From NCBI GenBank assembly GCA_964510165.1, contig CAZEBC010000045.1, positions 1 to 20,066 on the forward strand: a DNA stretch of 20,066 bases, written 5' to 3'. Shown piece by piece: positions 1 to 15,845 of the stretch. The notes below the pieces were generated by a model. The model did no database searches and was not told where the DNA came from. It worked only from the letters and a program-made list of their open reading frames with translations. Made by a program: the position numbers and the translations under genes. How positions within the stretch are numbered: position 1 is the first letter of the stretch; each line of letters starts with the position of its first letter. This DNA is from an uncultured bacterium (lineage in GTDB: Bacteria; Abyssobacteria; SURF-5).

Positions 1-3000
1 CTGGGCCTCCTTGTCGATGTCGAGCGCATGGCATCCCGTGACGCACGGCTTGGCCATGCGGCGCGAATTGATTGCGGCGTGCGAGGTCATGCCGCCCTCG
101 CGCGTGAGGACTCCGCACGCGGAGGATATGGCCCCGATGTCGTTGGGGGTGGTTCTGTCCGCCACCAGAATGACGTGCTCGCCCGCGTGCGCCCGCTTGA
201 TTGCGTCCGCCCTGCTGAAGGCCAACTTGCCGGTGGCCACACCGGGCGAGGCCGGATTCCCTCGGGCGAGGAGTCGTTTCGGAGCGCTTGGGCTGAAGAC
301 CGGCAGGAACAGTTGCTTTAGCTCGGCCTCCTGAAGGCGCGCGACGGCGGTCCTTTCATCAATCACTTTTTCCCTTGCAAGGTCCACCGCCGTTTTGAGC
401 GCGGCGTAATCGGTTCGCTTGGCGGCCCGCGTCTGGAGGAGATAGAGCACGCCGTCGTCAACGGTAAACTCTATGTCCTGCATGTCGCGGAAGTGAAGCT
501 CGAGCCTTCGTGCGACGGCCTTGAGTTCGTCATGTATCGCGGGAAACCGGCATTCCAGAGACAGGGACGCGCCTGCCTCATCCTGATAGGCGCTGAGCGG
601 CAGCGGGTTACCTCGCCCACACACAAGCAGTTCACCCTGACAGCACGGGAGATATTCGCCGAATATGCGAGGTTCGCCCGTGATGGGGTTGCGCGAGAAT
701 ACGACTCCGGAGCAGGAGTTTTGGCCACGGTTGCCGAACACCATCTGCTGTATGGTGGCCGCCGTTCCGAAGTGATGCGGGATATTGAATATCTGCCGAT
801 AGGTGGTGGCGCTGTCACTGCGCCAGGAGGAGAAGATCGCTCCGAGCGCGCCGAGAAGCTGCTCGCGGGGGTCCTGGGGGAACGGGGAGGCGGTCGCTTT
901 GCGCACCCACTCCAAGAGGGCCTTCACTCTCCGTTTCATTTCCTCGGGCGTTCCTCGCGCACCGTCAATTCTCTCAGCGGGAGACTCGCCGTCGCTTGTA
1001 CAGCCCATCACAGAGGAGGCATACTTCGCGATGAGCCGGAAATAGCACTCATACGCGAAAACCGGATCTCCCGATGTTCGGGCGAATCCCTCGACGGTCT
1101 CATCGTTCAAACCGATGTTGAGAATCGTGTCCATCATGCCGGGCATCGAGACGCAGGAACCGGCGCGCACCGCCAAGAGGAGCGGCCGCTCGGGCGCTCC
1201 CAGCAGGCAGCCCGTCACTTCCTCGAGTTCCGCAACGCAATCAAAGAGAAGCCTTCGTGTGTCGCTTCGCAGGACGCGGCCGTCGTGGAAGAACGTGTTG
1301 CATAGCTTCGAAGTGAGAACGAAGCCGGGGGGCACATTCACGCCGAGGCGGGCCATTTCCGTCAAATGCGCCCCCTTCTCCCCGAGGATGGGATACAACG
1401 AGGCGCCCCCTTCTGCAAGGCCGGGCCGGAAAAAGTACGCGAGTTTCGCCGGGTCCGTGTTGGCGGCAAGGGCATCGAGGTCCTGTCTTATCTTGGCCAC
1501 CTTACGGAGCGAAATCTCCCTTATGGGCGGATGGCGGACTCGCTTCATGAAGCCGGCGATCCGGCTGCGGGAGAAACTGAGCAGTTTGAGCGTGAGTTCC
1601 GAGAGGTGCTGGAGCGTGGTCTCCCGAAAGAGGCCGTCCACAAACGCGCTGGCCGCTTCCTCGGCATTGGGGATTTGCCGCAGGGCAAATATCTCCCTTG
1701 TCAGATCATAGTATATCTCCACCATCTTGTCGGTGATCACGCCTATTTCGGCGTCGATGCGCTCGAGGATTGAATAGACGGTGTAGAAGTTGAGGCCGCT
1801 CGAATGTTTGAGTTCAAGCAGTTGCGATGCATAGTGTTCGAGCTCCTCGGTCCCCTGGCCCTTGGCGCGCACATTGAGCACCATCGAATGGATGACGTCC
1901 AGGGCGACCGGCAGCGTTTCGGACGTGATATCTGCAAGTATCACATTATTGACTTCCCCAAAAAGAATGTATCCGATGCGTTCAAGCGTGAGGTCAAGCC
2001 AGATCGCCTCCAAGGTGACCGGAATGGTTTGCGATTGGATGAGAGGGTCCTTTATCTTGCCTCTGAGCGACATCCTTATGTCGCCAAGCAAGAGCGCGGC
2101 CTTCAAAGCCTTCTTTGAACGCAAGCACTCGATGAATTCCTCAAGCGGGTCAATCAGCGCGGGGAAGAAAAGGGCGACCGCATCGCGGCGCCACTTATGG
2201 ATCAGGTTCAAAATGTCCTCCGGCCTTCTCTTGCCCGCATCTTCAAGTTTGACTTTGAGAGTCTCGAAAAGAACTCTGTGATTCGGATTCTCCGCCTTTT
2301 CGCCTGCCTCGCGGAGCAGCGCGAGCAGGATCTCGAGATTGGTCTGAATCAGCGATTCGTTTCCCTTCTCGATGCTTCCCATCAGGTAGCGAAGGTAGTT
2401 ATTGACTTGCGGGGAAACGATCTGGGCAATATTACTCATCAACTGATAAATGTCTGAAACCCTGTCTTCGATTCTTCCTGGGTGCGGCTCGAAGATGTTT
2501 GCGAGTTCGCGCTCGAGCTCTTTGAGGGGTCGCATGATGCCCGCGAATTTCGCAGGTTGATATTGGAATACCTTCTGATACTTGTTTATCTTGTGCAGCG
2601 GTTCGGAATTGCCGTGCTCCGCATAGCTCAGCAGAGCTCTGACGAAGTCGAGATTGCGCGGCGAAAGCTTGTTGTGAATCTCGCCGCGTATGTCTTCGGT
2701 GATGGGGCAGGGGAAGGTGTACTCGATTTCTTCGGCAAGTCCGCGGATGGCGCGGATTTCGTCCTGTGAGGCGCCGAAGAACGGCAGGCTCTTCACCAAC
2801 TGGCGTATCAGGAGATACATCTCGTCCGAGGACAGGTCAAGCATCATCAACGTCTCAAGCTTTTCGCGCATCCGCTTCGAGAGCGCGATGCTGTCGGCCC
2901 GCTCGGCAAACCCGCTCCCCTGGTAACCCGGGAGGCTGCCGGTCTCGGCGCGAAGATTTATGGTGAGCGCCTTGATGAGTTCAGTGTTGACATGAGGATA

Positions 3001-3072
3001 TGCGACGATACGCTCGATACATTCGAACACATGGTCCCAGGTCCGTATCGGCTCAAGCCTCGGGTTTTTCAT
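1..3072 (-). CDS. ppdK: Pyruvate,phosphate dikinase-like protein with a ~540-aa N-terminal extension; partial, continues past the left edge (>1024 aa)
   Basis: Hand translation from ATG at 3072 (MKNPRLEPIRTWDHVF...) stays open to position 1, so it has no stop in the window and is absent from the ORF track. PPDK motifs start at about 1443: LGEKGAHLTEMARLGVNVPPGF, AVRAGSCVSMPGMMDTILNIG, QQMVFGN, SGVVFSRNPITG, DMQDIEFTVDDGVLYLLQTR, PASPGVATG, and the phospho-His motif GGMTSHAA (His codon 79-81). The PEP/pyruvate-binding domain is not visible. Confidence 0.88.
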   Translation of the reverse strand, partial: MKNPRLEPIRTWDHVFECIERIVAYPHVNTELIKALTINLRAETGSLPGYQGSGFAERADSIALSKRMREKLETLMMLDLSSDEMYLLIRQLVKSLPFFGASQDEIRAIRGLAEEIEYTFPCPITEDIRGEIHNKLSPRNLDFVRALLSYAEHGNSEPLHKINKYQKVFQYQPAKFAGIMRPLKELERELANIFEPHPGRIEDRVSDIYQLMSNIAQIVSPQVNNYLRYLMGSIEKGNESLIQTNLEILLALLREAGEKAENPNHRVLFETLKVKLEDAGKRRPEDILNLIHKWRRDAVALFFPALIDPLEEFIECLRSKKALKAALLLGDIRMSLRGKIKDPLIQSQTIPVTLEAIWLDLTLERIGYILFGEVNNVILADITSETLPVALDVIHSMVLNVRAKGQGTEELEHYASQLLELKHSSGLNFYTVYSILERIDAEIGVITDKMVEIYYDLTREIFALRQIPNAEEAASAFVDGLFRETTLQHLSELTLKLLSFSRSRIAGFMKRVRHPPIREISLRKVAKIRQDLDALAANTDPAKLAYFFRPGLAEGGASLYPILGEKGAHLTEMARLGVNVPPGFVLTSKLCNTFFHDGRVLRSDTRRLLFDCVAELEEVTGCLLGAPERPLLLAVRAGSCVSMPGMMDTILNIGLNDETVEGFARTSGDPVFAYECYFRLIAKYASSVMGCTSDGESPAERIDGARGTPEEMKRRVKALLEWVRKATASPFPQDPREQLLGALGAIFSSWRSDSATTYRQIFNIPHHFGTAATIQQMVFGNRGQNSCSGVVFSRNPITGEPRIFGEYLPCCQGELLVCGRGNPLPLSAYQDEAGASLSLECRFPAIHDELKAVARRLELHFRDMQDIEFTVDDGVLYLLQTRAAKRTDYAALKTAVDLAREKVIDERTAVARLQEAELKQLFLPVFSPSAPKRLLARGNPASPGVATGKLAFSRADAIKRAHAGEHVILVADRTTPNDIGAISSACGVLTREGGMTSHAAINSRRMAKPCVTGCHALDIDKEAQ

Positions 3073-3100
3073 AGACACGCCCTCACCGGCGCGGAATATG

Positions 3101-3478
3101 CTATGGGTCCTCGCGCTTTTCCAAAACCCGCTCGATGACGCCTCTGATGGTCTGAAGCTTCACAGGCTTGCTCAGGTAATCGTGCGCGCCCATATTCATG
3201 AGGTCCATGTACGACTCGACCTCGCCGAAGGCGGTCAGGAACACGACGGGCACATCGAGTTCTCTCTTTATGAGTTCCCGCATCAACTCCATACCGTCGA
3301 GGTTGGGCATTCTCAGGTCGGAGATGATGAGGTCAAAGTCGGATTGTGACAGCGCCTCGAGGGCCTCCAATCCGTCGTGGACCGCAGTCACCGTGTAGCC
3401 AATCCCCTCGAGACCTCTCCTGAACGCTTTGCAGAACTCCCTGTCGTCGTCAACCAGTAGTATCGAGCGCCCATCCAT
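3101..3478 (-). CDS. Single-domain response regulator (REC only)
   Basis: MDGRSILLVDDD...LIISDLRMPNLDG...FLTAFG...YLSKP. The start at ATG 3478 has an AAGGAG RBS at 3485-3490. The ORF-track start at 3550 is probably too long. Confidence 0.93.
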   Translation of the reverse strand: MDGRSILLVDDDREFCKAFRRGLEGIGYTVTAVHDGLEALEALSQSDFDLIISDLRMPNLDGMELMRELIKRELDVPVVFLTAFGEVESYMDLMNMGAHDYLSKPVKLQTIRGVIERVLEKREDP

Positions 3479-3550
3479 CAGCGACTCCTTCCGATTATCC
3501 TCCTGTTGTCGGTCCGGGAGACCAAAGCTTTCACCTCTCAGTATACACAA

Positions 3551-3985
3551 TCAGCCCGGCGGCTGCTCTTCCGACCAGACGGAATACCACAGCGTCCCGT
3601 CCAGCCCCTTTCTCTTGGCGGCGGCGTCTCGAATCTTTTCAGCCAGAAGGTCGATGTCATATGGCTTGGTGAGGTAGGCAAACGCCTCATCGCGCCAGCC
3701 TTCCAGAGCGGAGTCCACGGTTCCATGCCCTGTCAGCATTATGACCTCGAGCTCCGGCTTCAGTATTTTTATTTCCCGAAGCGCTTCGTTGCCGTCCATG
3801 CCGGGCATCTTCACATCCAGCACGACTACGTCAATTGGCCTCTCCCGTATGACGTCGAGAGCTTCGACTCCGCTGGCAGCGCCCGTCACCTCGAAGCCGC
3901 GCCTTTTCAGCGTGGCGGTGGCCGTGGTTCGGAAGCGCTGCTCGTCATCCACCAGCAGCACGTGAATCTTTCTCTGCTTGTCCAT
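3551..3985 (-). CDS. Single-domain response regulator (REC only)
   Basis: VLLVDDE, VVVLDVKMPGMDG, MLTGHG and YLTKP motifs; AAGGAG RBS upstream of ATG 3985. Confidence 0.94.
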   Translation of the reverse strand: MDKQRKIHVLLVDDEQRFRTTATATLKRRGFEVTGAASGVEALDVIRERPIDVVVLDVKMPGMDGNEALREIKILKPELEVIMLTGHGTVDSALEGWRDEAFAYLTKPYDIDLLAEKIRDAAAKRKGLDGTLWYSVWSEEQPPG

Positions 3986-4421
3986 GGTTTATGCTCCTTT
4001 CAAGTGTTGATACGCCCTTTTCCCTCGCGCATGCGTCCCTTATTTTCCTCGCCAGCACGCTGATCTCGCACGGCTTGGTGAGATAATCGAAAACGCCTTC
4101 CCTCAGCCCCTCAAGCGCCGATTTCATCGTGCCGTGCCCGGTCAACATGATCACCTCCGGGCTTGGATTGATCTTCCTGATCTCGCGAAAGGTCTCGTTG
4201 CCGTCCATGTCAGGCATCTTTACGTCGAGCACGACGACATCGAACGGCCTTTTCCTGATTTCGTCCAACGCTTCGATTCCGCTTCCCACGGCCGTGGCCG
4301 CGAACCCGCGCTTGTTCAAGATGCACGCAGTAGTGTTGCGAAACTGCTCTTCGTCATCCACGATCAGGACCCGAATGCCTTCGGTCTTCTTCGCAACCGC
4401 CTTTTTCTTGTCGGCGCTCAT
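3945..4421 (-). CDS. Single-domain response regulator (REC only), close paralog of 3551-3985
   Basis: VLIVDDE, VVVLDVKMPDMDG, MLTGHG and YLTKP motifs; overlaps the next gene by 41 bp. Confidence 0.93.
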   Translation of the reverse strand: MSADKKKAVAKKTEGIRVLIVDDEEQFRNTTACILNKRGFAATAVGSGIEALDEIRKRPFDVVVLDVKMPDMDGNETFREIRKINPSPEVIMLTGHGTMKSALEGLREGVFDYLTKPCEISVLARKIRDACAREKGVSTLERSINHGQAEKDSRAAGG

Positions 4422-4450
4422 GGTTCAGACCCTCGTGTCGGAAACGCGCC

Positions 4451-4909
4451 TCAGTCCCGGTCCTCTTCTTTTTCGTAGATGGCCATGGGATGACGAATGA
4501 TATTGTTGATCTTCGTCTTGCGCGATCTCTCCTCTTTGGCCAGCTTCCTCTCATAAGCTTCTTCGACCTTGGCAATTATCTCCGAGACGCGTGCGGGCTT
4601 GGTGAGGTAATCGAATGCCCCGAGTTTGAGGCCCTCTATGGCTGACTCGACCGAGGCGTGTCCCGTCAGCAGTATCACCTCCACGTCCGGATGGTCACGC
4701 TTGACCTTGCTCAGCACGTCCAGCCCGTCTATGCCCGGCATCTTGATGTCGAGCACCACGACGTCGAAACGCCTTTTGCCGAGGATGTCGAGCGCGTCGA
4801 ATCCGTTCGTGCACGTGAGTGTGTCAACACCGCGCTTTTCCAAGAGTTTTCTGGTAGTTGACAGGAACTGTTCCTCATCATCTACCAGCAGCAGGTGTAT
4901 GTTGCTCAT
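4451..4909 (-). CDS. Single-domain response regulator (REC plus a short charged tail)
   Basis: LLLVDDE, VVVLDIKMPGIDG, LLTGHA and YLTKP motifs; begins 3 bp after the kinase stop. Confidence 0.95.
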   Translation of the reverse strand: MSNIHLLLVDDEEQFLSTTRKLLEKRGVDTLTCTNGFDALDILGKRRFDVVVLDIKMPGIDGLDVLSKVKRDHPDVEVILLTGHASVESAIEGLKLGAFDYLTKPARVSEIIAKVEEAYERKLAKEERSRKTKINNIIRHPMAIYEKEEDRD

Positions 4910-4912
4910 GAC

Positions 4913-6643
4913 CTAACCTCCCTGTTCTTGCCGTATCGCGTGCCGGACTTGGGCCCGTTCCGGCACTGCGGAAAGCGGAAGTCGAACCGTGAATACCGTT
5001 CCCACGTTGACCTCGCTGCTGACCGAGATTTGGCCGCCCAGCCGCTCCACGATTCCATAACACGTGCTGAGCCCCAGTCCCGTGCCCTGACCCACTGGCT
5101 TCGTCGTGAAAAACGGTAGGAATATCTTTTCCAGATTCTCAGGGGGAATGCCGCAGCCGTTGTCTGCGAACGACACCGACAGGTGGCCGTTGCTGACGAC
5201 GGCGCCCACCTTGATCTGGCCGTTGTCTCTGCCTTTCAGAGCGTCAATAGCGTTGTTCAGGAGATTGAGAAAGACCTGTTGAAGTTGTGCCGGGTCGCTC
5301 TCTATGCGTGGAAGATCGGGGCCCAGTTCCTCGACAATCTGAATATTCTCAACCCGGGCTCGGCGGTCGACCATGCCGACAACCTCGTGGAGCAACGGGG
5401 GCATGTCGAATTTCTGTATCGAGGTCTCCGACTGACGGGCAAATTTGAGCAGTCCGAGCGTGATTTTCTTGCAGCGGTCCACCTGGGCGCCCATCCGGAT
5501 AATTGAGTCTCTCAGCATGTTCATATTCTCCGATTGAGACCCCTTCTGCTGCTCCATGTCGTCAAGAATGTCGAGCGCCAGAGCCTCTTCCGATTTCATG
5601 ACCTGCAGTGGGTTGTTGATCTCGTGCGCGAGGCCCGCGCTCATCTCGCCCACCTCCGCCAGCTTGCCGGCCATGATCAACTGGCTGCCCATCCGCTTCT
5701 TCTCCATGTCGGCCACCGTGAGTTGGTTGGCCACGCCCGAGGCCAGCAGAAATCCCATGGTCACCACCACCGCCCCGCCCGCGATTATCAGCGCGACCGC
5801 GAGCAACACGGCTCGCGTGAGGGGCGCGTAAGCGTCTCCCAATTCCTGGCGCACCACCAGGAGCCAGCCCGTGGAAGCGAGACGGCAGGTGGCATAGACA
5901 TGCCGCGAGCCGGCGCCGTCATCGCTCGCGAATGAGGCGACACCCTCCTCCGCCACCACGTACCGCTCGAAATCCCGGTCAACCTCCATGAGGTTCCCCC
6001 CGGAGCGACGTCGGGTCTGGAAAACCCCTTGTTCGTTGACCAGATACGCCTCTCCGGTCTTGCCAATGCGCAGGTTCTCGACAAGGTCGTTGAAGAAGAG
6101 CGTGTCAATAGTCGCGCGCAAGTACCAGGGGGCGCCGTCCTGTCCGCCGCGCACCGCGATCACGAAATGGGGAATATTGCGGTAGCCCAAAAACACATCG
6201 GAGATATAGATTCCCGCATCCTTGACCTTGAGAAACCATTCGGCGTCGGCGTAGTTTCGGCCCCTCAGGTCGTACGGGCCGATATAGGCCACATGGTTGC
6301 CGGCATCATCGAAAACGCCGATATCGAAAAACGCGCGGGATTGCCCTTGGAGGCGATCCAGCACTTGGGCAAGATGGTCGTTGTCCTTCAGGTTCTCGAA
6401 CCTGTCCGAAATGGCCACGTACCGCAGGTCCGATACCCTTTCGTTCAAGAACTGCTCCACAATGTGGCGGTGCCCGTCGGCCAGATGCGTGAGCTTCTCC
6501 TTTGCCTGGCTGCGCAGGTTGGTGGCGAAGTAGTATACGAGAGTGCCGAAGACAAGCATTACCGCCAGAAACGGCACCAGCAGGACTCGGCTCATTATCA
6601 TCCGGCGCGTGGCTTTGAACTTTCGGTTCTCCATTTCGCTCAC
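4913..6643 (-). CDS. Membrane sensor histidine kinase (TM - extracytoplasmic Cache-like domain - TM - HisKA - HATPase)
   Basis: H-box GEMSAGLAHEINNPL, N-box QQVFLNLLNNAIDA, G boxes DNGCGI / PFFTTKPVGQGTGLGL, two TM helices, and Cache-type motifs (Y..AEWF, YISDVFLGYR, GEAYLVN). The true start may be ATG 6634, which aligns with the paralog's start. Confidence 0.95.
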   Translation of the reverse strand: MSEMENRKFKATRRMIMSRVLLVPFLAVMLVFGTLVYYFATNLRSQAKEKLTHLADGHRHIVEQFLNERVSDLRYVAISDRFENLKDNDHLAQVLDRLQGQSRAFFDIGVFDDAGNHVAYIGPYDLRGRNYADAEWFLKVKDAGIYISDVFLGYRNIPHFVIAVRGGQDGAPWYLRATIDTLFFNDLVENLRIGKTGEAYLVNEQGVFQTRRRSGGNLMEVDRDFERYVVAEEGVASFASDDGAGSRHVYATCRLASTGWLLVVRQELGDAYAPLTRAVLLAVALIIAGGAVVVTMGFLLASGVANQLTVADMEKKRMGSQLIMAGKLAEVGEMSAGLAHEINNPLQVMKSEEALALDILDDMEQQKGSQSENMNMLRDSIIRMGAQVDRCKKITLGLLKFARQSETSIQKFDMPPLLHEVVGMVDRRARVENIQIVEELGPDLPRIESDPAQLQQVFLNLLNNAIDALKGRDNGQIKVGAVVSNGHLSVSFADNGCGIPPENLEKIFLPFFTTKPVGQGTGLGLSTCYGIVERLGGQISVSSEVNVGTVFTVRLPLSAVPERAQVRHAIRQEQGG

Positions 6644-7089
6644 CGTTCTTCTGTTTTATCGCTTCCCGTCGGGCGTTGCTCCACTGTTTGCGCCGTCTCC
6701 TGAATTCTCCTTTGCCTGGCTCGCCTCTTGTCGTAGGCGTGCTCCACGCTCGACTGTAACACGTCTATCGAGATGGGTTTGGTCAGGTAGGCGGTGACTC
6801 CCAGCTTGAGTCCTTCTGCCTCAGAATCAACGGAGACGTGGCCGGTCAAGAGGATGACCTCAACATCCGGATGGTTCTGTCGCATCTTTCTGAGCACCTC
6901 GAAGCCGTCAATTCCGGGCATCTTGATGTCGAGCACCACCACGTCTATGCGACGCTCGGCCAGAATCCTGAGCGCATCGTGTCCGTTGGTGCACGTGGAC
7001 GTGTTTATGCCGCGCCTGTCCAGTAACTTCTTATGCGTGGTGAGGAAGCGCTCCTCGTCGTCCACAAGCAGAAGGTTTATGGCGTCCAT
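6640..7089 (-). CDS. Single-domain response regulator, paralog of 4451-4909
   Basis: LLLVDDE, VVVLDIKMPGIDG, LLTGH and YLTKP motifs; overlaps the upstream kinase by 13 bp. Confidence 0.94.
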   Translation of the reverse strand: MDAINLLLVDDEERFLTTHKKLLDRRGINTSTCTNGHDALRILAERRIDVVVLDIKMPGIDGFEVLRKMRQNHPDVEVILLTGHVSVDSEAEGLKLGVTAYLTKPISIDVLQSSVEHAYDKRRARQRRIQETAQTVEQRPTGSDKTEER

Positions 7090-8813
7090 TGCGCCGGTTC
7101 TCCTTGCAGTTCCTTCGGGCTCTTTTCGCTCTTTTCGGGGGGACCGGCCAGTGGGAGCCGAACCGAAAAGACCGTGCCCACGCCTAACTCGCTGCTGACA
7201 GTGATCTGGCCGCCCAACCGATCCACGATCCCGTAACAGGTGCTCAGGCCCAGGCCCGTTCCCTGTCCCACCGGCTTCGTCGTGAAAAACGGGAGGAATA
7301 TCTTCTCCATGTTTTCCGGAGGTATGCCGATGCCGTCGTCGGTCACGGATATTATGAGGTCGTCATCTGCCGATGCGGCGGTGACGCGAATCTCACCCCC
7401 GCCCTTCGGCCTCAAGGCGTCGATTGCATTATTCAAGAGATTCAGGAATACTTGCTGAAGCTGGGCAGGATCGCTGCGGATGCTGGGCAGCGAGGCCTCG
7501 AATTCCTGCACGATGCGCACGTTCTCCACTTGCGCCTGGCGCTCCACCATGCTCACCACGCCGGGTATCAGCGACCGCATGTCCAGCGTCTCGATTTTCG
7601 CCTCGGTCTTGCGCGCAAACCCGAGCAGTCCCGCGGTGATCTGTTTCCCTCTTTCGACCTGCAGGTCGATCTGCTCAACGGATTCCCGAAGCAGTTTGAG
7701 GTTCTCGGGATCGAGGATGCTCCCGTTCTTCTCCATTTCTTCGAGAATATCCTTCATGTAGGTCTCTTCGCCCTTGATCACCTGGAGCGGGTTGTTCATC
7801 TCATGCGCGACGCCCGCGCTCATCTCGCCCACCTCGGCCAGCTTGCCAGCCATTATCAACTGCGTGCCCATTCGCTTCTTTTCCATGTCGGCCACGGTCA
7901 ACTGGTTTGCCACGCCCGAAGCAAGCATGAACCCCATGAACACCGCCAGTCCGCCGCCCGCCACGATCGTCACGACCCCGATCACCACGGCGCGGATGAG
8001 CGGCGAGTAGGCGTCACTGACGCTCTGGCGCACCACCAGAAGCCAGCCCATCGGTTCAATGCGGCCGGTGGCGTAAATGTGACGCTCTCCCTTGTGGTCG
8101 TCGGCGGCAAAGCATGAGGCGCGCCCCTCATGCTTCCCGTAGATGGAGAAATCGGGGTCGATCTCCATCAGGTCTCCTCCCGACCGGCGGCGTGTCTGGA
8201 ACACGCCCTCTCGATTTATCAGGTACGCCTCGCCCGTCTTGCCGACGCGGATGTTCTCCACCAGGTCGTTGAAATAGAGCCAGTCGATTGTTGTTCGCAA
8301 ATACCAGGTCCGATCCCCTTCCTCCTGCCGGACTGCGATCACAAAGTGCGGGTCGTTGCGATATCCCAGGAACAGGTCGGAGACATAGACATCCGCCTCC
8401 CGGGTCTGGAGGAACCACTGCGCCTCCGCATAGTTCTTGCCTTTCAAGTCGTAAGGCCCGATGTAGGCAACGTGGTCGCCCTTCTCATCGAAAAGCCCGA
8501 GATCGAAGAACGCGCGTGAGCGCATCTGGAGTCGCTCGAAAATCCTGGCCAGACGCTGCTCGCGGCTCAGTTCCTCAAACGTGTTTGAGGCTGCAACATA
8601 GTGCAGGTCGAAACAGCGTTCCCGAAGGAACCCCTCGATCATGCTCCGGTGAGCGTCGGCAGTCCTGACCAGGTTCGTCTCCACCTGAGCGCGCAGATTC
8701 GTCGCAAAGTAGTACACGAGCGTGCAGAACACGAGCGCAAGCGTGACAAACGGCACCAGCAACACTCGTCGCAGGATGATTCGCCGGATATTTTTGAACC
8801 GTCCGGCCTCCAT
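7077..8813 (-). CDS. Membrane sensor histidine kinase with Cache-like domain, close paralog of 4913-6643
   Basis: H-box GEMSAGVAHEMNNPL, N-box QQVFLNLLNNAIDA, DDGIGI and PFFTTKPVGQGTGLGL; two TM helices. Confidence 0.95.
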   Translation of the reverse strand: MEAGRFKNIRRIILRRVLLVPFVTLALVFCTLVYYFATNLRAQVETNLVRTADAHRSMIEGFLRERCFDLHYVAASNTFEELSREQRLARIFERLQMRSRAFFDLGLFDEKGDHVAYIGPYDLKGKNYAEAQWFLQTREADVYVSDLFLGYRNDPHFVIAVRQEEGDRTWYLRTTIDWLYFNDLVENIRVGKTGEAYLINREGVFQTRRRSGGDLMEIDPDFSIYGKHEGRASCFAADDHKGERHIYATGRIEPMGWLLVVRQSVSDAYSPLIRAVVIGVVTIVAGGGLAVFMGFMLASGVANQLTVADMEKKRMGTQLIMAGKLAEVGEMSAGVAHEMNNPLQVIKGEETYMKDILEEMEKNGSILDPENLKLLRESVEQIDLQVERGKQITAGLLGFARKTEAKIETLDMRSLIPGVVSMVERQAQVENVRIVQEFEASLPSIRSDPAQLQQVFLNLLNNAIDALRPKGGGEIRVTAASADDDLIISVTDDGIGIPPENMEKIFLPFFTTKPVGQGTGLGLSTCYGIVDRLGGQITVSSELGVGTVFSVRLPLAGPPEKSEKSPKELQGEPAQWTP

Positions 8814-8818
8814 CAGGG

Positions 8819-9310
8819 TTAACCCTCCTCCTTATCGAGTTCACGTATCTTCCGCAGGATGCCCAGCGGCGAACTCGAATCCGCCATCTCCAATATCTTC
8901 TCCATGCGGTCCTGCTTGATCTTCATCTTGTTCATGACGCGGTGTTTGTAGGCGTCGGTGAGAACCTGCAGCAGCTTTTCCAGTTCACAGGGTTTCTGAA
9001 GGTAGAAGTATGCGCCCTTCTTCGTGCACTCGACCGCCGATTCCGTCGAGCCATGCCCCGTGAGAATGACGACCTCCAGCCACTCATGCTCCCGCTTGAG
9101 AGCCTCGAGGGTCTGCTCGCCGTTCATCCCGGGCATCTTCAGATCCACCAGCGCGACGTCGATGGGATTCTGACGCGCAGTCTCGATGGCCTTGTCACCA
9201 CGGTTTACCGTGATGACGTTGAAGTCTCTGATCACAAGCCGTTTCTTGATGGATTCAAGAAACCGCTCCTCATCGTCTACGATCAGAAGGTTTATCTTTT
9301 CCTTTGCCAT
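8819..9310 (-). CDS. Response regulator (REC plus a ~40-aa C-terminal helical tail, no recognisable DNA-binding domain)
   Basis: LLIVDDE, ALVDLKMPGMNG, ILTGHG and YLQKP motifs; GAGGAGG RBS at about 9320-9326. Confidence 0.94.
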   Translation of the reverse strand: MAKEKINLLIVDDEERFLESIKKRLVIRDFNVITVNRGDKAIETARQNPIDVALVDLKMPGMNGEQTLEALKREHEWLEVVILTGHGSTESAVECTKKGAYFYLQKPCELEKLLQVLTDAYKHRVMNKMKIKQDRMEKILEMADSSSPLGILRKIRELDKEEG

Positions 9311-9325
9311 TGTCTTGTATCCTCC

Positions 9326-11389
9326 TCAGAAGCCTATCCAACGCCAATACCCGAAGAAAACCCACGCCCACAACACAAGGAACGATATCACCAACGCTGC
9401 CGCGCCATGCTTGAGAAAGTCCTGAACCGTCACGAGTTGTTCGCCGGTCTCAGGGTCCCTGGCCATGCTGTACGCAATGGCATTGTTGGGTGTGCCGACA
9501 ATCAACATATACGCGAATGAGGATGAGAATGCAGTTGAGAGCCCCACCATCAAGGGGGGGGTGCCGGAGAGGGTCGCCATCGGAACCGTGATCGGACCGA
9601 TCGCGGCGACCGTCGCGCCGTCGCTCATGAAGTTGGTGATGAACCCGCTGAAAAGACTGGTGGCGATGCAAAGCCCCTCTCCGCTCTTCATGGATTCCGG
9701 AAGCGCGTTGATGAAGCCGTCGGCCATCCACAGCGCGGCGCCCGTCGCCGCCAAGCCCACTCCCATGGCGCTGGCGCTCGCGTACAGCCCTACCACGTCC
9801 CAGTGAATCTGGTTGATGTCGCGCCAGCGCAGGATGCCGAGCAGGTTGAGCAGCACGAGGCACAAGAGCACCGGCCCGCCCATCCCCAGCGTGTCGGATG
9901 CGGTGGTCCACAAGGCTATCAGCAACACCAGAACGGCGGCGGTGCGGTACTCGTTCTTGGTCATCTTTCCGAGCTTTTCAGACTCGCGCCGTACCGCGGC
10001 GGCCACGTTCAGGTCCTTTATCCGCAATTTTCTGCGAAAGACAAGATACAAATACCCGCTGATCGCCATTGCCATGACCGGAACACAGGGAAGTCCGTAC
10101 ATCACCCATTGCCCGAACGTCGGCGCGAGGCCGTAATCGGACAAGATGCCCAGCATCACCGCGTTGCGCCCGCCCGCCGCCGGCGAGCCCGGCCCGCCGG
10201 TGTTCGCGACGAACGTGAGCATAAGGATCATCATTACGGCCAGGCTGCGGTCCTTCGTGATATTGGCCGCCTTGACCGCGCCCGCGTACACGAGCATGAA
10301 TATCGGCGCGATGAACGCCACCAGCGCATGTTCAGACAAAAACCCCGCCGCGACCGCGAGCAGCGGACAGAATATGAACGCCAGCCTCGAAAGCGATGTG
10401 CTCGTCCCGAGCAGCAGGATGCCGATTCGCTTGTCAAGCCCCGTCTTCGCGATTGCGGCCGAGACCGCAAGGACGCCAAAGATAAAAACGACCGAGTCCT
10501 TTGCATACGCGCCTGCAACCTTGTCGGGAGGAAGCACCCCAAAGAAGTACATCAGCATTCCGACAAAGACCGCGGTCATGCCCACGGGCATGGCGCCGGT
10601 CGCCCAAAACAGAGCCGCCACGATCAGGGTTCCGATCATGACTCTCGCCCGAAACGCGGTCTGTCTGGGACTCATCGAAATCTTCCTGGTAGTCCCGTCA
10701 TCCATGACCGCCGTCTTGGTCCAGCCCGCCCTCTCGCTATAGAAATCGGAGATGGTTTGTCCGACCTGCATGTTTCGAAAATCGGCGTACCCCATGATCG
10801 CCTGGTGCGACTCTTCGGTCTTCGGCGTGCTTATGAGCGCCAGAAGCCTGGAGGGCGGCGGCGACGCGATGATTGCCGCAAATATCAGAAACCCAAGCAG
10901 GATGAAGCCCGGCCGCGCGTTGTGCGCACCCATCAGCCACCGCTTGAAACTGCCCCGTTGGACTTGCGGAATCTCGTGGCGCGCCATCGCGTACACCCGC
11001 TCTTGCCTGGCCGCATTGATGACCTGGATCAGTTCTTCAAGCGCACACGGTTTCTGCATGTAATGAAACACGTCGTACTTGCCGGTGACCCGCGCCGATT
11101 CCGTGCTTCCATAGCCGGTCAGCATGATCACCTGCACCTCCGGCCTTATCTTCTTGATCTCCTTCAGCGTTTGGATGCCGTCCATCTTGGGCATTCGCTG
11201 GTCCAGAAGCACGACGTCGGGGCTGCTATGGCGCACAAACTTGATCGCATCCTCGCCATTGTTGACTTCCCAGACCCGATAGTTGCGCACTTCAAGCTGG
11301 CGCTTCATGGCGAGCCTGAATCGGTCTTCGTCATCGACCACGAGAATTCTCGGCCTTCCGTCGGGCTGGCTCGCTGTCTGCTCAGCCAT
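9326..11389 (-). CDS. N-terminal REC domain fused to an SLC13/DASS-family (ion transporter superfamily) anion permease
   Basis: aa 14-130 form a REC domain (ILVVDDE, VLLDQRMP, MLTGYG, YMQKP). The rest has many TM segments with DASS-like motifs: ALFWATGAMP, AIAKTGLDKRI, ANTGGPGSPAAGGRNA, IHWDVVGLY, AYMLIVGTPNNAIAY, DFLKHG. Confidence 0.92.
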   Translation of the reverse strand: MAEQTASQPDGRPRILVVDDEDRFRLAMKRQLEVRNYRVWEVNNGEDAIKFVRHSSPDVVLLDQRMPKMDGIQTLKEIKKIRPEVQVIMLTGYGSTESARVTGKYDVFHYMQKPCALEELIQVINAARQERVYAMARHEIPQVQRGSFKRWLMGAHNARPGFILLGFLIFAAIIASPPPSRLLALISTPKTEESHQAIMGYADFRNMQVGQTISDFYSERAGWTKTAVMDDGTTRKISMSPRQTAFRARVMIGTLIVAALFWATGAMPVGMTAVFVGMLMYFFGVLPPDKVAGAYAKDSVVFIFGVLAVSAAIAKTGLDKRIGILLLGTSTSLSRLAFIFCPLLAVAAGFLSEHALVAFIAPIFMLVYAGAVKAANITKDRSLAVMMILMLTFVANTGGPGSPAAGGRNAVMLGILSDYGLAPTFGQWVMYGLPCVPVMAMAISGYLYLVFRRKLRIKDLNVAAAVRRESEKLGKMTKNEYRTAAVLVLLIALWTTASDTLGMGGPVLLCLVLLNLLGILRWRDINQIHWDVVGLYASASAMGVGLAATGAALWMADGFINALPESMKSGEGLCIATSLFSGFITNFMSDGATVAAIGPITVPMATLSGTPPLMVGLSTAFSSSFAYMLIVGTPNNAIAYSMARDPETGEQLVTVQDFLKHGAAALVISFLVLWAWVFFGYWRWIGF

Positions 11390-13136
11390 CTGAACTTTCC
11401 TCCGCCTTCTGTATTGGAAGAACCACGGTAAAGGAACTGCCCGCGCCCGGCATGCTTTGGACTTCGATTCGGCCTCCCATGGACTGTACGATGCTCAGGC
11501 TGATGCTCAACCCAAGGCCGGTGCCTTTACCGACTTCCTTGGTGGTGTAGAACGGGTCGAATATCCTCTCCATCTGCTCGGAGGTCATTCCTTTACCCGT
11601 GTCGGCAATGCTCACCTTGATGAATCCGTTATCGCTGCGCGTGCTTATTGTCAGCCTGCCTCCGGTTCCCTCCATCGCATCGCCCGCATTGTTGACGATA
11701 TTCAGAAACACCTGCCGCATCTGGTCCGGGTCCAGCATTATGTCGGGCAAATTCGCGTCGTAGTTCCTGACCAGAGTGACCCCCGATACCTCCAGCTCCT
11801 TCTCCTTCAACCCCCCGACCACGTCATCCAGCAGATGGTTCAAGTTCGTTCTCACCAGGCGAGGCTCGTTCTTGCGCACGAAATCGAGCAGCTTCTCCGT
11901 GATGTCGCGAGCGCGGAAAACGGCCTCGTCAATGTAGTCCAGCTCCTGCCGTATCTTCTCCGGCGTGCACGCCAGTCCAAATTGGGGGTCGAGCATGTCC
12001 CTGATGACCCCGGTCTCGGAACTGATGATGGCCAAAGGGTTGTTGATCTCATGCGCAACTCCCCCTGCAAGCTCGCCCGCAGCCACCAACTTTGCCGCAT
12101 GAAACAGCTGCGATTTCAGTTCCTTCCTCGATTCATCCGTCGCCTGCGCGCGCTTCAGCAATCGGTCGGTCGTCAGCCCCGTGATCGTGACCAGCGCGAC
12201 GACAATGATGCCTGTGGCCGCGATTATGACGCCGCGCACCCGATACATGTCGGCGTAAGCGACCTTGACCGGCTGCCTCACCACGAGCACCCACGGAACC
12301 TCTTCCAGCCAGGCGTACGCAAACAGCTCGGCGCTGCCGTCGCTGGCAACCTCATCCGCCCCCGAACCGCTGGTTTCAGGCGGCATGTAAGGGCTCAGCG
12401 CCAAGAGGTCGCCCCGGCCCGGGTCCACAATCTGGTACTTGCCTTCCCGGTTGATGAGGGCCGAATCGGCCACTTTCCCTCTGCCGATTGTACGCAAGAA
12501 CAGGTAGAACTTGTCGGGGTCAAGCGTGGCCCGCATGACGCACGGTTCATCCTCGAATATCTGCCTCACCGCAATCGTGAAATGGGGCTTCTGCCTGAAA
12601 CCCAGATAAATATCGGTGATGTGATAGTTGCGTTCCTGGTTCATCAACGTCTGAAACCATTGCTCATTCCTGTAGTCCTTGCCCTGCAGGTAGGGATACG
12701 GCCCCGCATAACCGATCTGGACCCCAGACGCATTCAGGAAACCAACATCAACAAACGCATCGCTCATCGAGCGCAGATGACGCAGGTACCGCAGCATGTC
12801 CTCCTGGGAAGGCGGCAGCCTGAATCCGGCCCCGTAAAAAAGATTGAAAATGTTGACAACCCGCTCCTGCAGGAACAGGTCGATCGTGTTCCGCTGACTC
12901 TCCGCGAGCGAGGTCAGGTGCAGTTTCCCGCTCTCTCTCAATGTGAAATTGAACTGAAGGTGGAAATACAGCGAGAGGATCAGAAGAGGCACGACAATAG
13001 CCAGGAGCAACCCGAATTTCAGTCGCCGCCTCAGGCGCCGGTAATACTCTTCCATCCCCGGGCGCGACTGGATGCCCGCTTGGGCCGATTCGATGTCTTT
13101 TGGCGGAATACCACGGACCTTCTCATACGTTGCCAT
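11382..13136 (-). CDS. Membrane sensor histidine kinase with Cache-like domain; first gene of the operon
   Basis: H-box GELAGGVAHEINNPL, N-box RQVFLNIVNNAGDA, DTGKGM and PFYTTKEVGKGTGLGL; two TM helices; 8-bp overlap with the transporter gene. Confidence 0.95.
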   Translation of the reverse strand: MATYEKVRGIPPKDIESAQAGIQSRPGMEEYYRRLRRRLKFGLLLAIVVPLLILSLYFHLQFNFTLRESGKLHLTSLAESQRNTIDLFLQERVVNIFNLFYGAGFRLPPSQEDMLRYLRHLRSMSDAFVDVGFLNASGVQIGYAGPYPYLQGKDYRNEQWFQTLMNQERNYHITDIYLGFRQKPHFTIAVRQIFEDEPCVMRATLDPDKFYLFLRTIGRGKVADSALINREGKYQIVDPGRGDLLALSPYMPPETSGSGADEVASDGSAELFAYAWLEEVPWVLVVRQPVKVAYADMYRVRGVIIAATGIIVVALVTITGLTTDRLLKRAQATDESRKELKSQLFHAAKLVAAGELAGGVAHEINNPLAIISSETGVIRDMLDPQFGLACTPEKIRQELDYIDEAVFRARDITEKLLDFVRKNEPRLVRTNLNHLLDDVVGGLKEKELEVSGVTLVRNYDANLPDIMLDPDQMRQVFLNIVNNAGDAMEGTGGRLTISTRSDNGFIKVSIADTGKGMTSEQMERIFDPFYTTKEVGKGTGLGLSISLSIVQSMGGRIEVQSMPGAGSSFTVVLPIQKAEESSDG

Positions 13137-13631: not shown

Positions 13632-15845
13632 ATGCGAGTCTCGGTAGAACAAACAATCAACAGGCTTCGCGAACTTGGGAAAAAGCCCCATCGCTCCAGG
13701 GGCAACGGCTGGCTCGCGCTGTGTCCCGCCCACCACGACACGCGTGCCAGCCTCTCGATCAGCGGCGGGCGCGACGGAACATTGCTGCTCAAATGCTTCG
13801 CGGGATGCCGGTTCGAACATATCCTCGATGCGCTCGGCTTGCGCGGGTGCGCGGGCGGTTCACGAACCGCCCCTGCAATGACGCCGCCCGATTGTGGGGG
13901 CGCGCGGCGCGCGCCCCGCCGCGCGCCTGACGGACACGCACGAAACGGCCTCTCGCGCATCGTGGCCGAGTACGACTACCGCGATGAACGCGGCCGACTG
14001 CTCTACCAGGTGGTCCGGTTCCAGCCGAAGGATTTCCGCTGTCGCAGGCCGTCTCCCTCCGGCGAATGGATTTGGGGCCTGAGCGGCCGCAGGGTGCTCT
14101 ACCGGTTGCCCGAGGCGCTGGAGGCCGTCCGCGCCGGACGCCGTCTCCACATCGTCGAGGGTGAGAAAGACGCCGACGCGCTCGCGCGGCTCGGCCTTGC
14201 AGCCACCACGAACCTGCATGGGGCGGGGAAGTGGCGCGATGAATATTCGCTCTCGCTCAGGGGCGTGCGCGCGGTCATCATTCCCGACAACGACGAGCCG
14301 GGCCGCGCCCACGCAAGGCGGGTGGCCCGAAGCCTCGCGCCGTTGGCCGCCGAGGTCAAGCTGCTGGAGCTGCCCGGGCTCGGCCCCAAGCAGGACGTAT
14401 CGGACTGGCTCGCGCGCGGCGGCACAGCGGCCGAGCTTGAGAGGCTCGCCGATGAACCGTCCAACCCTTCGGACTCCGCAGGGGCACGGCGCGCCGTGCC
14501 CCTGCAATCCTCCAACCTGAACGACCTCTATCACGCACGGCGAATTGCGCAACGCTTCGGCCAGAGCATCCGCCATTGCGAACGGCTCGGTGGGTTCTTC
14601 GTGTATGACGGCGTTCGCTGGACGCGCGACGAGACCGCTCAGGTGTGGCGCTGGGCCGTCGAGACCGCCGAAGACATCCAGCGCGAGGCGCGCGGGTTTG
14701 GTCGTGAAGACGAGCGCAGACGCCTGCTCGATTGGGCCGCCCGCGCCGAGCGCCGCGCCAACGTCGAGAGCGCGCTCACGCAGCTCGCCGCGCTGGAGGG
14801 AATCGCCCTCACGCACGATGCGTTCGATCGCGACCCCTGGCTGCTCAACTGCGCCAACGGAACCCTCGACTTGCGCTCGGGCGAGCTTCGGCCTCACCGG
14901 CGCGAGGACATGCTCACGAAGATGACCGCGGTCCGCTTCGAGCCGAAGGCGCCATGTCCGCAGTGGCAGGCGTTCCTCACGCGAATCATGAGCGGCAACG
15001 TGGAACTGCTGGCGTTCCTCCAGCGGGCGGTCGGCTACGCGCTCACCGGTTCGGTCAGGGAGCAGAAGCTCCTCTTTCTGCACGGAACGGGCGCAAACGG
15101 CAAGAGCACATTTCTGAGCGCACTTTTGCACGTGTGGGGCGACTACGGGAGGCGCATCGCGCCCGACCTGCTGTTTTTCGACCGCGACGACACGCATCCG
15201 ACCGCGCTGGCCGACCTGTGCGGCGTGCGCCTCGCGGTCACGACCGAAGTCGAGCAGGGCAAGCGCCTCGCCGAAGTGCTCGTCAAGGAACTCAGCGGGG
15301 GCGACCGCCTGCTCGCGCGCCGGATGCGGCAGGACTACTTCGAGTTCGAGCCGACCCACAAGCTGTTCATGGCGGGCAACCATCTGCCGGTCATCCGCGG
15401 GACCGACCACGCCGTGTGGCGTCGCATCGCGCTCGTGCCGTTCACGGTGACCGTGCCCGAGGGCGAGCAGATAAAAGACCTCGCCGACAAGCTGCGAGCG
15501 GAGGCGCCTGGCATCTTCAGATGGTGCGTGCGCGGATGCCTCGACTGGCAGGCGTTCGGCCTGAGCGAGCCTGCCGAGGTGCGCGCGGCGACGGGACAGT
15601 ACCGCTCCGACATGGACATCCTCGGCGATTTCCTGGCCGAACGCTGCGTCGTCCTGCCCGGGGCCGAGGTCACGAGCGCGGAGTTGAACCAGGCCTATCG
15701 CGCCTGGTGCGAGAAGACGGGCGAGCGCGCGATGAGCGCCCGCTCGCTCGGCCTGCGCCTGAAGGAGCGTGGGTTTACGCAGAAGCACAGCGGCGAGTCG
15801 AGAGCGCGGACGTGGATGGGCATCGGCCTCGGAAGCGAAGGGTGA
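13632..15845 (+). CDS. Phage/plasmid/satellite-type primase-helicase (Zn-binding domain - TOPRIM - D5_N - SF3 helicase - C-terminal winged helix; P4 alpha/D5-like)
   Basis: Zn motif CPAHHD...LLKCFAGC; TOPRIM motifs IVEGEKDA and IIPDNDEPG; D5_N-like LLNCANGTLDLRSGELRPH; Walker A GTGANGKST; SF3 motifs KELSGGD...ARRM, AGNHLP and AVWRR; tail YRAWC..TGER. AGGAGG at 13614-13619. Confidence 0.93.
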   Translation: MRVSVEQTINRLRELGKKPHRSRGNGWLALCPAHHDTRASLSISGGRDGTLLLKCFAGCRFEHILDALGLRGCAGGSRTAPAMTPPDCGGARRAPRRAPDGHARNGLSRIVAEYDYRDERGRLLYQVVRFQPKDFRCRRPSPSGEWIWGLSGRRVLYRLPEALEAVRAGRRLHIVEGEKDADALARLGLAATTNLHGAGKWRDEYSLSLRGVRAVIIPDNDEPGRAHARRVARSLAPLAAEVKLLELPGLGPKQDVSDWLARGGTAAELERLADEPSNPSDSAGARRAVPLQSSNLNDLYHARRIAQRFGQSIRHCERLGGFFVYDGVRWTRDETAQVWRWAVETAEDIQREARGFGREDERRRLLDWAARAERRANVESALTQLAALEGIALTHDAFDRDPWLLNCANGTLDLRSGELRPHRREDMLTKMTAVRFEPKAPCPQWQAFLTRIMSGNVELLAFLQRAVGYALTGSVREQKLLFLHGTGANGKSTFLSALLHVWGDYGRRIAPDLLFFDRDDTHPTALADLCGVRLAVTTEVEQGKRLAEVLVKELSGGDRLLARRMRQDYFEFEPTHKLFMAGNHLPVIRGTDHAVWRRIALVPFTVTVPEGEQIKDLADKLRAEAPGIFRWCVRGCLDWQAFGLSEPAEVRAATGQYRSDMDILGDFLAERCVVLPGAEVTSAELNQAYRAWCEKTGERAMSARSLGLRLKERGFTQKHSGESRARTWMGIGLGSEG
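13849..13917. repeat. Two REP-like GC palindromes inside the primase Zn-TOPRIM linker
   Basis: GGGCGGTTC-AC-GAACCGCCC-CTGC (13853-13876) and GTG-GGGGCGCGCG-G-CGCGCGCCCC (13894-13917). Confidence 0.65.
14478..14505. repeat. Perfect 28-bp REP-like palindrome inside the primase TOPRIM-helicase linker
   Basis: GCAGGGGCACGGCGCGCCGTGCCCCTGC is its own reverse complement. Confidence 0.8.

Follow-up and report, generated by a model that had tools for sequence, protein, structure and literature searches.

A barrel-less dikinase with a PPDK-derived core and a conserved N-terminal helical domain in an uncultured bacterium of the SURF-5 lineage

The edge of contig CAZEBC010000045.1 (GenBank assembly GCA_964510165.1), from an uncultured bacterium of the Abyssobacteria (GTDB lineage SURF-5), carries a gene for a dikinase that matches pyruvate, phosphate dikinase (PPDK) in its core and departs from it at both ends. 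The DNA under analysis, here called the window, consists of the first 20,066 bases of this contig (C45; G000:C45:1-20066, G000 being the genome, with an assembly of 4.17 Mb that is 97% complete), and the gene lies at its beginning, on the minus strand. We interpret the product as being, with fair probability, a cytoplasmic histidine-swivel dikinase derived from PPDK, which has lost the phosphoenolpyruvate (PEP)/pyruvate barrel, carries a conserved helical domain and has a phosphate partner other than pyruvate. Histidine-swivel dikinases are a small set, made up of PPDK, PEP synthase, glucan, water dikinase and phosphoglucan, water dikinase (GWD/PWD), rifampin and phenol phosphotransferases, and VadK, and the third domain of each of them decides what gets phosphorylated.

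A PPDK-type core without the pyruvate barrel

The open reading frame of the dikinase runs from position 3078 to base 1 of the window and continues beyond its edge; its first ATG is at 3072, and residues are numbered from there. The first 55 bases of the window are identical to the last 55 of contig C7, on which an in-frame continuation (L003) adds 73 residues and then reaches a stop. We take the join of the two contigs as real, because P0002, a protein of 1096 residues that comes from a separate, independent assembly, agrees at 1021 of the 1024 shared residues and ends in the same letters. The complete dikinase has 1096 residues.

The two Pfam families found in it, PPDK_N (PF01326) and PEP-utilizers (PF00391), both lie after residue 543 (E values in Table 1) and stand in the same order as in PPDK (EC 2.7.9.1; PDB 1KBL/1DIK), with the ATP-grasp domain followed by the phospho-histidine domain. 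Residues 553-1055 align to residues 8-511 of the Clostridium symbiosum enzyme (PDB 1KBL) over 503 residues, with an E value of 2e-119. The catalytic motifs are identical between the two proteins: the lysine of GxKG, the arginine of VR(A/S)G, D-x-E of D(I/M)EFT, Q-x-R of QTR, and the GGMTSHAA motif with the catalytic His998, whose codon occupies window positions 79-81. We take these conserved residues to be the catalytic residues of PPDK.

The PPDK profile TIGR01828 nevertheless scores the 1026 window residues at 487.3 bits against a cut-off of 843.45, and matches only over its positions 2-475 of 865. Its position 2 pairs with residue 543 as numbered from the ATG (545 in the printed translation), and 543 codons (window 1444-3072) stand in frame ahead of the ATP-grasp domain. 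The same number of codons had been counted in the original prediction, made from the letters of the window; the TIGR01828 alignment and Pfam bear it out and move the boundary from 1443 to 1444. At the other end of the protein, about 40 residues follow the His domain and then the chain ends, so that the PEP/pyruvate TIM barrel is missing. Recovering the 3' end had been proposed in the original prediction as a way to see whether such a barrel follows, and with the end in hand none does. The barrel family PF02896 is absent from the completed dikinase and is found in the genome solely on contigs C29 and C1. On C29 it shares a 941-residue frame with PPDK_N, and we therefore regard that frame as the canonical PPDK of this bacterium, while the 604-residue frame on C1 is presumably a candidate enzyme I of the phosphotransferase system, judging from its size alone.

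Since the barrel is absent and a canonical PPDK is encoded on C29, the dikinase cannot be an ordinary PPDK. The same two observations make it likely, as far as the sequence can tell, that the acceptor is a molecule other than pyruvate, in agreement with what had been predicted at the outset. An ordinary PPDK with a dispensable N-terminal extension, or an artefact of assembly or annotation, is hardly credible: some relatives are publicly named 'pyruvate, phosphate dikinase' and the window does end within the gene, but the barrel is absent from the completed gene and from full-length close relatives, the TIGR01828 score is 487 against 843, the 1096-residue protein was assembled independently, and the extension is kept at 64-87% identity and across three subfamilies. 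The genome also holds five further frames with PPDK_N, of 698-915 residues, on contigs C126, C58, C42 (two) and C9. Together with the canonical PPDK and the gene studied here they make up a dikinase paralogue set that is unusually large for a 4.2 Mb genome.

The helical domain and its family

The N-terminal domain matches no Pfam family at E≤1, and at E≤10 no meaningful family recurs among 16 family members, the sole repeat being DUF2130 in 7 members (best E 0.0042). It is nevertheless shared with many other proteins. A word-indexed search returned 23 proteins at E≤0.001 among 7,999 scored candidates, 22 of them close relatives with 64-100% identity. These are mostly 1084-1118 residues long (full-length members about 1019-1118), carry PF01326 and PF00391 only, keep the extension at 64-87% identity, and come from sources named Abyssubacteria, Hydrogenedentota, Poribacteria and Lindowbacteria. 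When 1.84 billion representatives were searched exhaustively with phmmer, 25 matched at E≤0.001, ten of them at E≤1e-30. Eleven of the 25 were scanned for domains: four, of about 900-1030 residues, display the same architecture at about 35% identity, and two, of about 1400 residues, carry a phosphoglycerate kinase (PGK) domain after the His domain. The other five comprise two proteins of 428 and 172 residues without a Pfam family, a 915-residue protein with PPDK_N, and two more unusual cases. One is a 746-residue protein (P0044) with the His domain only, in which the helical region passes directly into PEP-utilizers and the ATP-grasp domain is lacking; the other is a 1170-residue protein without any Pfam family (P0043), the last 250 or so residues of which match the C-terminal cluster of the helical domain.

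When the N-terminal domain of one PGK-fused protein was used as the seed, 60 clusters were obtained, every one of them with PF00391, PF01326 and the PGK family PF00162. These proteins have 1175-1455 residues, with PF00162 placed after the His domain, and originate from Spirochaetota, Ozemobacteraceae, Erysipelotrichia and Elusimicrobiales under the labels 'phosphoglycerate kinase' or 'pyruvate orthophosphate dikinase'. Profile-profile alignment (hhalign) of the N-terminal domains connects the three groups: 100% probability between the forms of about 1090 and about 1020 residues (E 7e-59), 98.4% between the former and the PGK-fused form (E 4e-15, 405 columns), and 99.3% between the latter two. 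On these alignments the helical domain defines a single family with three architectures, of about 1090 residues, about 1020 residues, and about 1400 residues with fused PGK. Within the phylum of the window the domain is present in 6 of 11 genomes (5 of the 10 besides its own). A profile search for longer proteins returned close relatives only and missed the known distant members. The original prediction had allowed for related long PPDK-like proteins in Desulfobacterota; such proteins do exist, under names of the Abyssubacteria type and from Victivallales, Spirochaetota and Elusimicrobiales rather than from Desulfobacterota. The literature search found no description of the family or of a PPDK-PGK fusion within the limits of the library used, and the accessible part of a PGK review mentions other PGK fusions and not this one (PMC7729029).

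Two sequences carry pieces of the domain in foreign surroundings. The remaining one of the 23 proteins from the word-indexed search, a short protein of 580 residues (P0024), combines a metallo-beta-lactamase-type domain (PF12706) with a stretch that covers 27% of the helical domain and is 68% identical to it, and a Chloroflexales contig (L008 175-384) begins with a 65-residue piece at 60% identity. Both are likely to be assembly or binning chimeras or gene remnants.

How strongly is the domain constrained? The subfamilies share 20-35% overall identity, and yet in an alignment of 76 sequences there are 16 columns whose residue is common to the three subfamilies and conserved in no less than 85% of each: W12, R41, R90, L96, R110, R129, H133, L329, L336, D360, L361, K404, G405, F477, R483 and T485. 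The retention of arginine, histidine, lysine, aspartate and threonine at such low identity leads us to view the domain as a working part of the enzyme, and the abundance of Arg, His, Lys and Asp in the invariant set suggests an anion-binding or catalytic site. An AlphaFold2 model built from a 31-row alignment is all-helical, with 24 helices, a mean predicted local distance difference test (pLDDT) of 84.7 and a predicted template modelling score of 0.81; residues 306-543 modelled alone give nine helices at a pLDDT of 86.6. Residues ~199-305 form an insertion specific to the form of about 1090 residues. The extra N-terminal domain of the original prediction is, then, real, conserved across three subfamilies and predicted to be helical throughout; the glucan-related role assigned to it fares less well, as discussed below. 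The structure libraries searched offer no counterpart. Foldseek with the whole domain gave no match at E≤0.001 in a library reaching to 2026-04-08, the fold searches returned nothing beyond generic helix bundles at values that are background for helical proteins, phmmer of the domain and a 16-member profile produced chance-level rows only among PDB sequences (E 0.07 to 1.7), and the ESM Atlas yielded no usable match for the domain or for residues 306-543. The idea of internal repeats was dropped, because hhalign of parts of the domain against each other reaches probabilities of only 0.2-45%.

The origin of the attached core was addressed with a maximum-likelihood tree of 24 cores picked from the sequences on hand, namely eight of the form of about 1090 residues, three of about 1020, nine PGK-fused, two canonical PPDKs and two PEP-synthase-like paralogues of this genome. 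The PPDK-type cores split from the PEP-synthase-like pair with support of 100/100, and this placement identifies the core of the dikinase as PPDK-derived at the level of sequence. The cores of both shorter forms fall together with the canonical PPDKs at 95/97, in a branching order that the tree does not resolve, and the PGK-fused cores make up a long sister branch (98/97). The tree holds only two canonical PPDKs, and the program issued a long-branch warning.

Candidate phosphate partners and competing readings

If not pyruvate, what could the partner be? We compared the eight close loci for which 1 kb or more of sequence is available upstream. At four of them (L006, L007, L013 and G415:C6) a giant protein of about 1780 residues, containing glyceraldehyde-3-phosphate dehydrogenase (GAPDH) and PGK domains, is encoded immediately upstream on the same strand, and its gene abuts or overlaps the dikinase start. 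The giant is recognised by Gp_dh_N, Gp_dh_C and PGK, has no Pfam family in its first 900 or so residues, retains the SCTT cysteine motif in its GAPDH-like part, and has insertions in its PGK-like part. At two loci (L011 and L012) the divergent neighbour is a canonical 968-residue PPDK with its barrel. The giant occurs in three of six dikinase-carrying genomes and in neither of two non-carriers tested; its N-terminal 915 residues, used as a query, are found in G415 and not in G412, G413, G407 or G410. The suggestion that the giant itself contains the helical domain was rejected, as the domain profile matched dikinase reading frames only and blastp aligned PGK to PGK only.

Where PPDK has its barrel, the proteins of the fused subfamily have the PGK-like domain. 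We aligned the PGK-like parts of seven fused proteins (P0041, P0046, P0052, P0056, P0076, P0078 and P0093; the C-terminal ~440 residues) and of two giants with the genome's own PGK. In PGK the substrate-lobe motifs bind 3-phosphoglycerate and the nucleotide-lobe motifs bind nucleotide. All nine sequences compared retain RxDxNV, ENLRF and NDAF..HR.HAS, the motifs of the substrate lobe; the arginine of SHLGRP is replaced by Asp or Glu in the fused domains, and the glycine motifs of the nucleotide lobe are lost or deleted in four of the seven fused proteins. We hypothesize that the fused module still binds a phosphoglycerate-like acid, with the transfer of phosphate involving the phospho-histidine rather than ADP/ATP.

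By analogy with PPDK and VadK, ATP, probably with phosphate (Pi), would phosphorylate His998 at the ATP-grasp domain, yielding AMP and pyrophosphate (PPi), after which the His domain would swing off and hand the phosphate on; the reverse reaction would be equally possible. This first half-reaction would resemble those of PPDK, GWD/PWD and VadK. The N-terminal domain would most likely provide an anion-binding acceptor or effector site and not be a passive extension. Because of the PGK fusions and the gene neighbourhoods, we tentatively place the phosphate partner in lower glycolysis or gluconeogenesis, where 3-phosphoglycerate/1,3-bisphosphoglycerate or a close analogue might serve, although we hold any such specific assignment to be on the unlikely side. 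Its binding would fall either to the N-terminal domain or to a PGK-like module, one that is fused in one subfamily and would be provided in trans by the neighbouring giant in part of the subfamily to which this gene belongs.

Several observations weigh against our interpretation. It could be the fused PGK-like domain itself that forms the acceptor site, leaving a regulatory or scaffolding role to the N-terminal domain. In the tree the three subfamilies do not form a group apart from the canonical PPDKs, so that a single origin of the combination of helical domain and core cannot be taken for granted. Two of the eight close loci have unrelated genes upstream, namely a run of signalling genes in this window and a radical-SAM gene on the opposite strand at L005, and two loci of the subfamily of about 1020 residues are located after dnaG. 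For the gene studied here the link to PGK is indirect, since its genome lacks the giant: the whole giant as a query finds only the ordinary gap-pgk pair there, at 31% identity. Finally, a search of sequencing runs brought up five of DNA, from three studies of freshwater and hot-spring metagenomes, but none of RNA.

Another possibility is that the core only autophosphorylates and serves to control other proteins. VadK (Rv1127c) of Mycobacterium tuberculosis sets the precedent: according to the part of the report available (PMC13400623), it is a barrel-less PPDK with ATP-binding and His domains only, which autophosphorylates His422 and binds and regulates enzymes of the methylcitrate cycle. In a regulatory kinase of this type the helical domain would sense a ligand or dock proteins, and its partners might be the four upstream receiver proteins or metabolic enzymes. 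We consider this unlikely, though a contender to be reckoned with. The dikinase shares with VadK a PPDK-derived core of ATP-grasp and His domains without a barrel, its core attains 420.1 bits on the VadK-type profile NF004531 (PRK05878; positions 25-433 of 534), just under the cut-off of 456, its gene follows ten signalling genes at a distance of 28 bases, and all-helical domains without an enzyme-like fold match are common protein-binding modules. However, the signalling neighbourhood occurs at one of the eight close loci, the invariant Arg, His, Lys and Asp are more what one would expect of a catalytic site, or of a site for a small anionic ligand, than of a variable interface between proteins, and the recurrent partners are enzymes that retain their catalytic motifs. 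The protein also differs from VadK in its size, 1096 residues with the additional 543-residue domain as opposed to about 490-534, and in the ties of its family to PGK-like and GAPDH-like modules, where VadK, from what is accessible of its description, is tied to the methylcitrate cycle.

The original prediction had taken a different direction, proposing that the helical domain is homologous to the central domain of GWD/PWD and that a glucan, for instance glycogen, may be what the enzyme phosphorylates. The two parts of this proposal deserve to be judged separately. Crystal structures of the central domain of StGWD1 (residues 483-926, 444 residues; PDB 9HA9 and 9QVI) became available in August 2026, and the portion of that paper open to us describes an all-helical domain of 20 helices in three clusters, without an equivalent in the PDB, in which the conserved E900, E901 and R904 on a helix near the domain end face the catalytic His992 and are proposed to act in the transfer (PMC13553574). 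As a histidine-swivel dikinase with a large all-helical domain lacking a known structural equivalent, the protein studied here resembles GWD1/PWD (EC 2.7.9.4 / 2.7.9.5), and the domains are comparable in length, 444 residues in StGWD1 by the partial text and about 430-540 here. Our sequence and fold searches of the PDB with the N-terminal domain found no GWD entry; this blank says nothing on homology as far as the folds are concerned, because the fold library ends on 2026-04-08, before the August structures.

The case for homology had been made from unverified GWD/PWD strings paired by eye with segments of the window. All five window segments quoted are present where they were said to be. We compared the quoted strings, ungapped, with the protein and with 1000 shuffles. 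A 22-residue string finds its best place at residue 129, as claimed, with a score of 39 that none of the 1000 shuffles reached, and a 13-residue string fits at residue 87, also as claimed (score 27, p 0.006). Of the other strings, one is borderline (p 0.069), two do no better than shuffled sequence (p 0.73 and 0.58) and one is best placed at residue 75 instead of the claimed 356. Two of the six quoted pairs thereby hold up at their claimed places, and the remaining four are marginal, at chance level or located elsewhere. Over the few hundred thousand placements open to a by-eye search, chance would by our estimate produce one score of 39 (about 21 bits) roughly 0.1 times. Identities to the strings occur at 6 of 10 family-invariant positions and at 22 of the 79 other positions (one-sided Fisher p 0.048, again for unverified strings), which is more telling, because the family-invariant residues could not have been known when the strings were proposed. 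By analogy with the partly accessible StGWD1 description, D479 and the invariant R483 near the domain end may parallel the i, i+4 spacing of E900 and R904. This motif-level likeness is suggestive. That the helical domain is homologous to the GWD/PWD central domain seems to us possible, if somewhat doubtful, and by our estimate it is more likely than a glucan substrate. A bacterial relative of the GWD central domain is not mentioned in the accessible parts of PMC13553574 or of bioRxiv 10.64898/2026.09.25.754361.

Homology together with glucan phosphorylation is very unlikely. The two strings above shuffles, the bias towards invariant positions and the helical StGWD1 domain with its echoed spacing (PMC13553574, as far as accessible) favour it; against it, the strings are unverified, and four of the six are at or near chance or fall elsewhere. 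No GWD-like family appears in Pfam for 16 members (E≤10), in the 11 domain-checked phmmer matches of 25, or among PDB sequences. The domain order of GWD, central helical, His and ATP-binding in the available text of PMC13553574, is the reverse of the ATP-grasp-then-His order found here, behind the helical domain. GWD further has carbohydrate-binding modules (CBM45/CBM20) and a His domain of the type PF22973, neither of which is found in the dikinase: its His domain is PF00391, and no CBM family occurs among its Pfam matches at E≤1. PF22973 (GWD1_pHisD) has no match in the genome at E≤10, in the genomes of five relatives, in 401 genomes of the phylum of G001 or in 401 of that of G002, but these blanks are weak evidence, because the controls gave no match over the cut-off either and the sensitivity of the search is unproven. 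PF23229 (DUF7067) gave chance rows only, elsewhere in the genome, and looking for short GWD motif words in the literature returned no paper. Genes for PGK, GAPDH and PPDK recur as neighbours or fusion partners and glycogen genes do not, and the context points to three-carbon phospho-acids, not glucans. A glucan or glycogen acceptor is thus left unsupported.

One could also combine elements of both views. The helical domain might be the acceptor site of a new class of phosphate dikinases of lower glycolysis or gluconeogenesis and, at the same time, a prokaryotic relative, missing until now, of the central domain of the starch dikinases GWD/PWD of plants and algae. The enzyme would then couple ATP + Pi <-> AMP + PPi, through the phospho-histidine, to phosphoryl transfer on 3-phosphoglycerate/1,3-bisphosphoglycerate or a close analogue, and the acceptor domain of GWD/PWD would have been recruited from a bacterial metabolite dikinase. 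We regard this conjunction as improbable.

The last known relatives to be considered are rifampin phosphotransferase and the PEP-synthase-like dikinases (for example LmRPH, PDB 5HV1/5FBS), which likewise join an ATP-grasp domain and a His swivel to a family-specific acceptor domain. They give a weak match in the shared domains only, with E ~1e-4 on the His domain, and their acceptor domain, which has no sequence relationship to the helical domain, is placed after the ATP-grasp domain and before the His domain. Overall, the dikinase belongs neither to PPDK, by the missing barrel and the profile score, nor to GWD/PWD, by domain order, type of His domain and lack of CBM, nor to VadK, by the extra domain and again the profile score. 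Our preferred interpretation remains that of a PPDK-derived dikinase whose helical domain and phosphate partner set it apart.

Genomic surroundings and implications

Table 1. Coordinates of the dikinase domains, of the associated giant genes at related loci and of the signalling genes in the window.
Feature	Position	Strand	Basis or remark
N-terminal all-helical domain, residues 1-543	1444..3072	-	TIGR01828 boundary, AlphaFold2 model
Inserted helical bundle within N-terminal domain, residues ~199-305	2158..2478	-	
C-terminal helical cluster of N-terminal domain, residues 306-512, bearing D360, K404, F477, R483, T485	1537..2157	-	
PPDK-type ATP-grasp nucleotide-binding domain, residues ~544-930	283..1443	-	Pfam PPDK_N E 3.4e-36
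Phospho-histidine swivel domain, first part, residues 931-1024	1..282	-	Pfam PEP-utilizers E 6.3e-17
Four tandem stand-alone receiver genes (3101-3550, 3551-3985, 3945-4421, 4451-4909)	3101..4909	-	Response_reg E 1e-29 to 3e-31
Three dCache histidine kinases	4913-6643, 7077-8813, 11382-13136	-	HATPase_c, HisKA, dCache_1
Two further stand-alone receiver genes	6640-7089, 8819-9310	-	Response_reg
Receiver fused to DASS/CitMHS-type anion transporter	9326-11389	-	Response_reg, Na_sulph_symp, CitMHS
Giant GAPDH/PGK gene	L006 157-5508; L007 4624-9969; L013 848-6235; L035 (G415:C6)		directly upstream of dikinase

In this genome the dikinase is the last of eleven genes on the same strand, the other ten being two-component signalling genes (3101-13136) that encode three histidine kinases and seven receiver domains, six of them stand-alone and four of these in tandem. 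No DNA-binding output domain was detected among the proteins of the run. The stop of the last receiver gene (3101) and the ATG of the dikinase (3072) are separated by 28 bases, and a scan for promoters and terminators between the two genes found nothing above shuffles. As no such site exceeds chance in or near the gap, the dikinase is likely to be co-transcribed with the receiver genes, and its place at the end of ten signalling genes suggests that its expression is probably tied to a sensory system in this bacterium. The arrangement is confined to this genome among the loci examined, and for this reason we read it as bearing on the regulation of expression and not as a clue to the chemistry.

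One member of the run is curious in its own right. The 687-residue transporter fusion has its receiver at residues 15-124 and matches Na_sulph_symp at E 1e-38; direct gating by phosphorylation would be an uncommon feature in a transporter. Beyond the 3' end of the dikinase lie two convergent tRNA genes, of which tRNA-Gly, converging on that end, is preceded at 12 bases by a perfect sigma-70 consensus (12/12; TTGACA, 17 nt, TATAAT; L003 9389-9417, plus strand).

The remainder of the window holds features unrelated to the dikinase. A 737-residue frame of the primase-helicase type (D5_N/DUF5906/Pox_D5) at 13632-15845 on the plus strand has a G+C content of 66-69%, compared with 57-61% around it, and the segment is probably part of an integrated mobile element; opposite this frame runs a 642-codon frame without a Pfam family. 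At 16129-19997 on the minus strand, a 659-residue protein resembling ADP-forming acyl-CoA synthetase is followed by a 630-residue fusion of acetyl-CoA hydrolase/transferase with a GNAT acetyltransferase, the stop of the former gene overlapping the start of the latter.

The dikinase of this uncultured bacterium presents a PPDK core deprived of its pyruvate barrel and provided with a conserved domain that has no known fold. The family defined by this domain is widespread in uncultured anaerobes, where its members pass under the labels 'phosphoglycerate kinase', 'pyruvate phosphate dikinase' and 'hypothetical', and its recognition corrects misleading database names. Should the proposed transfer at the level of triose phosphates with AMP/PPi chemistry be true, the enzyme would add to central carbon and energy metabolism a step that has gone unrecognised. 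Should the helical domain be homologous to the central domain of GWD, starch phosphorylation would gain a bacterial ancestry.

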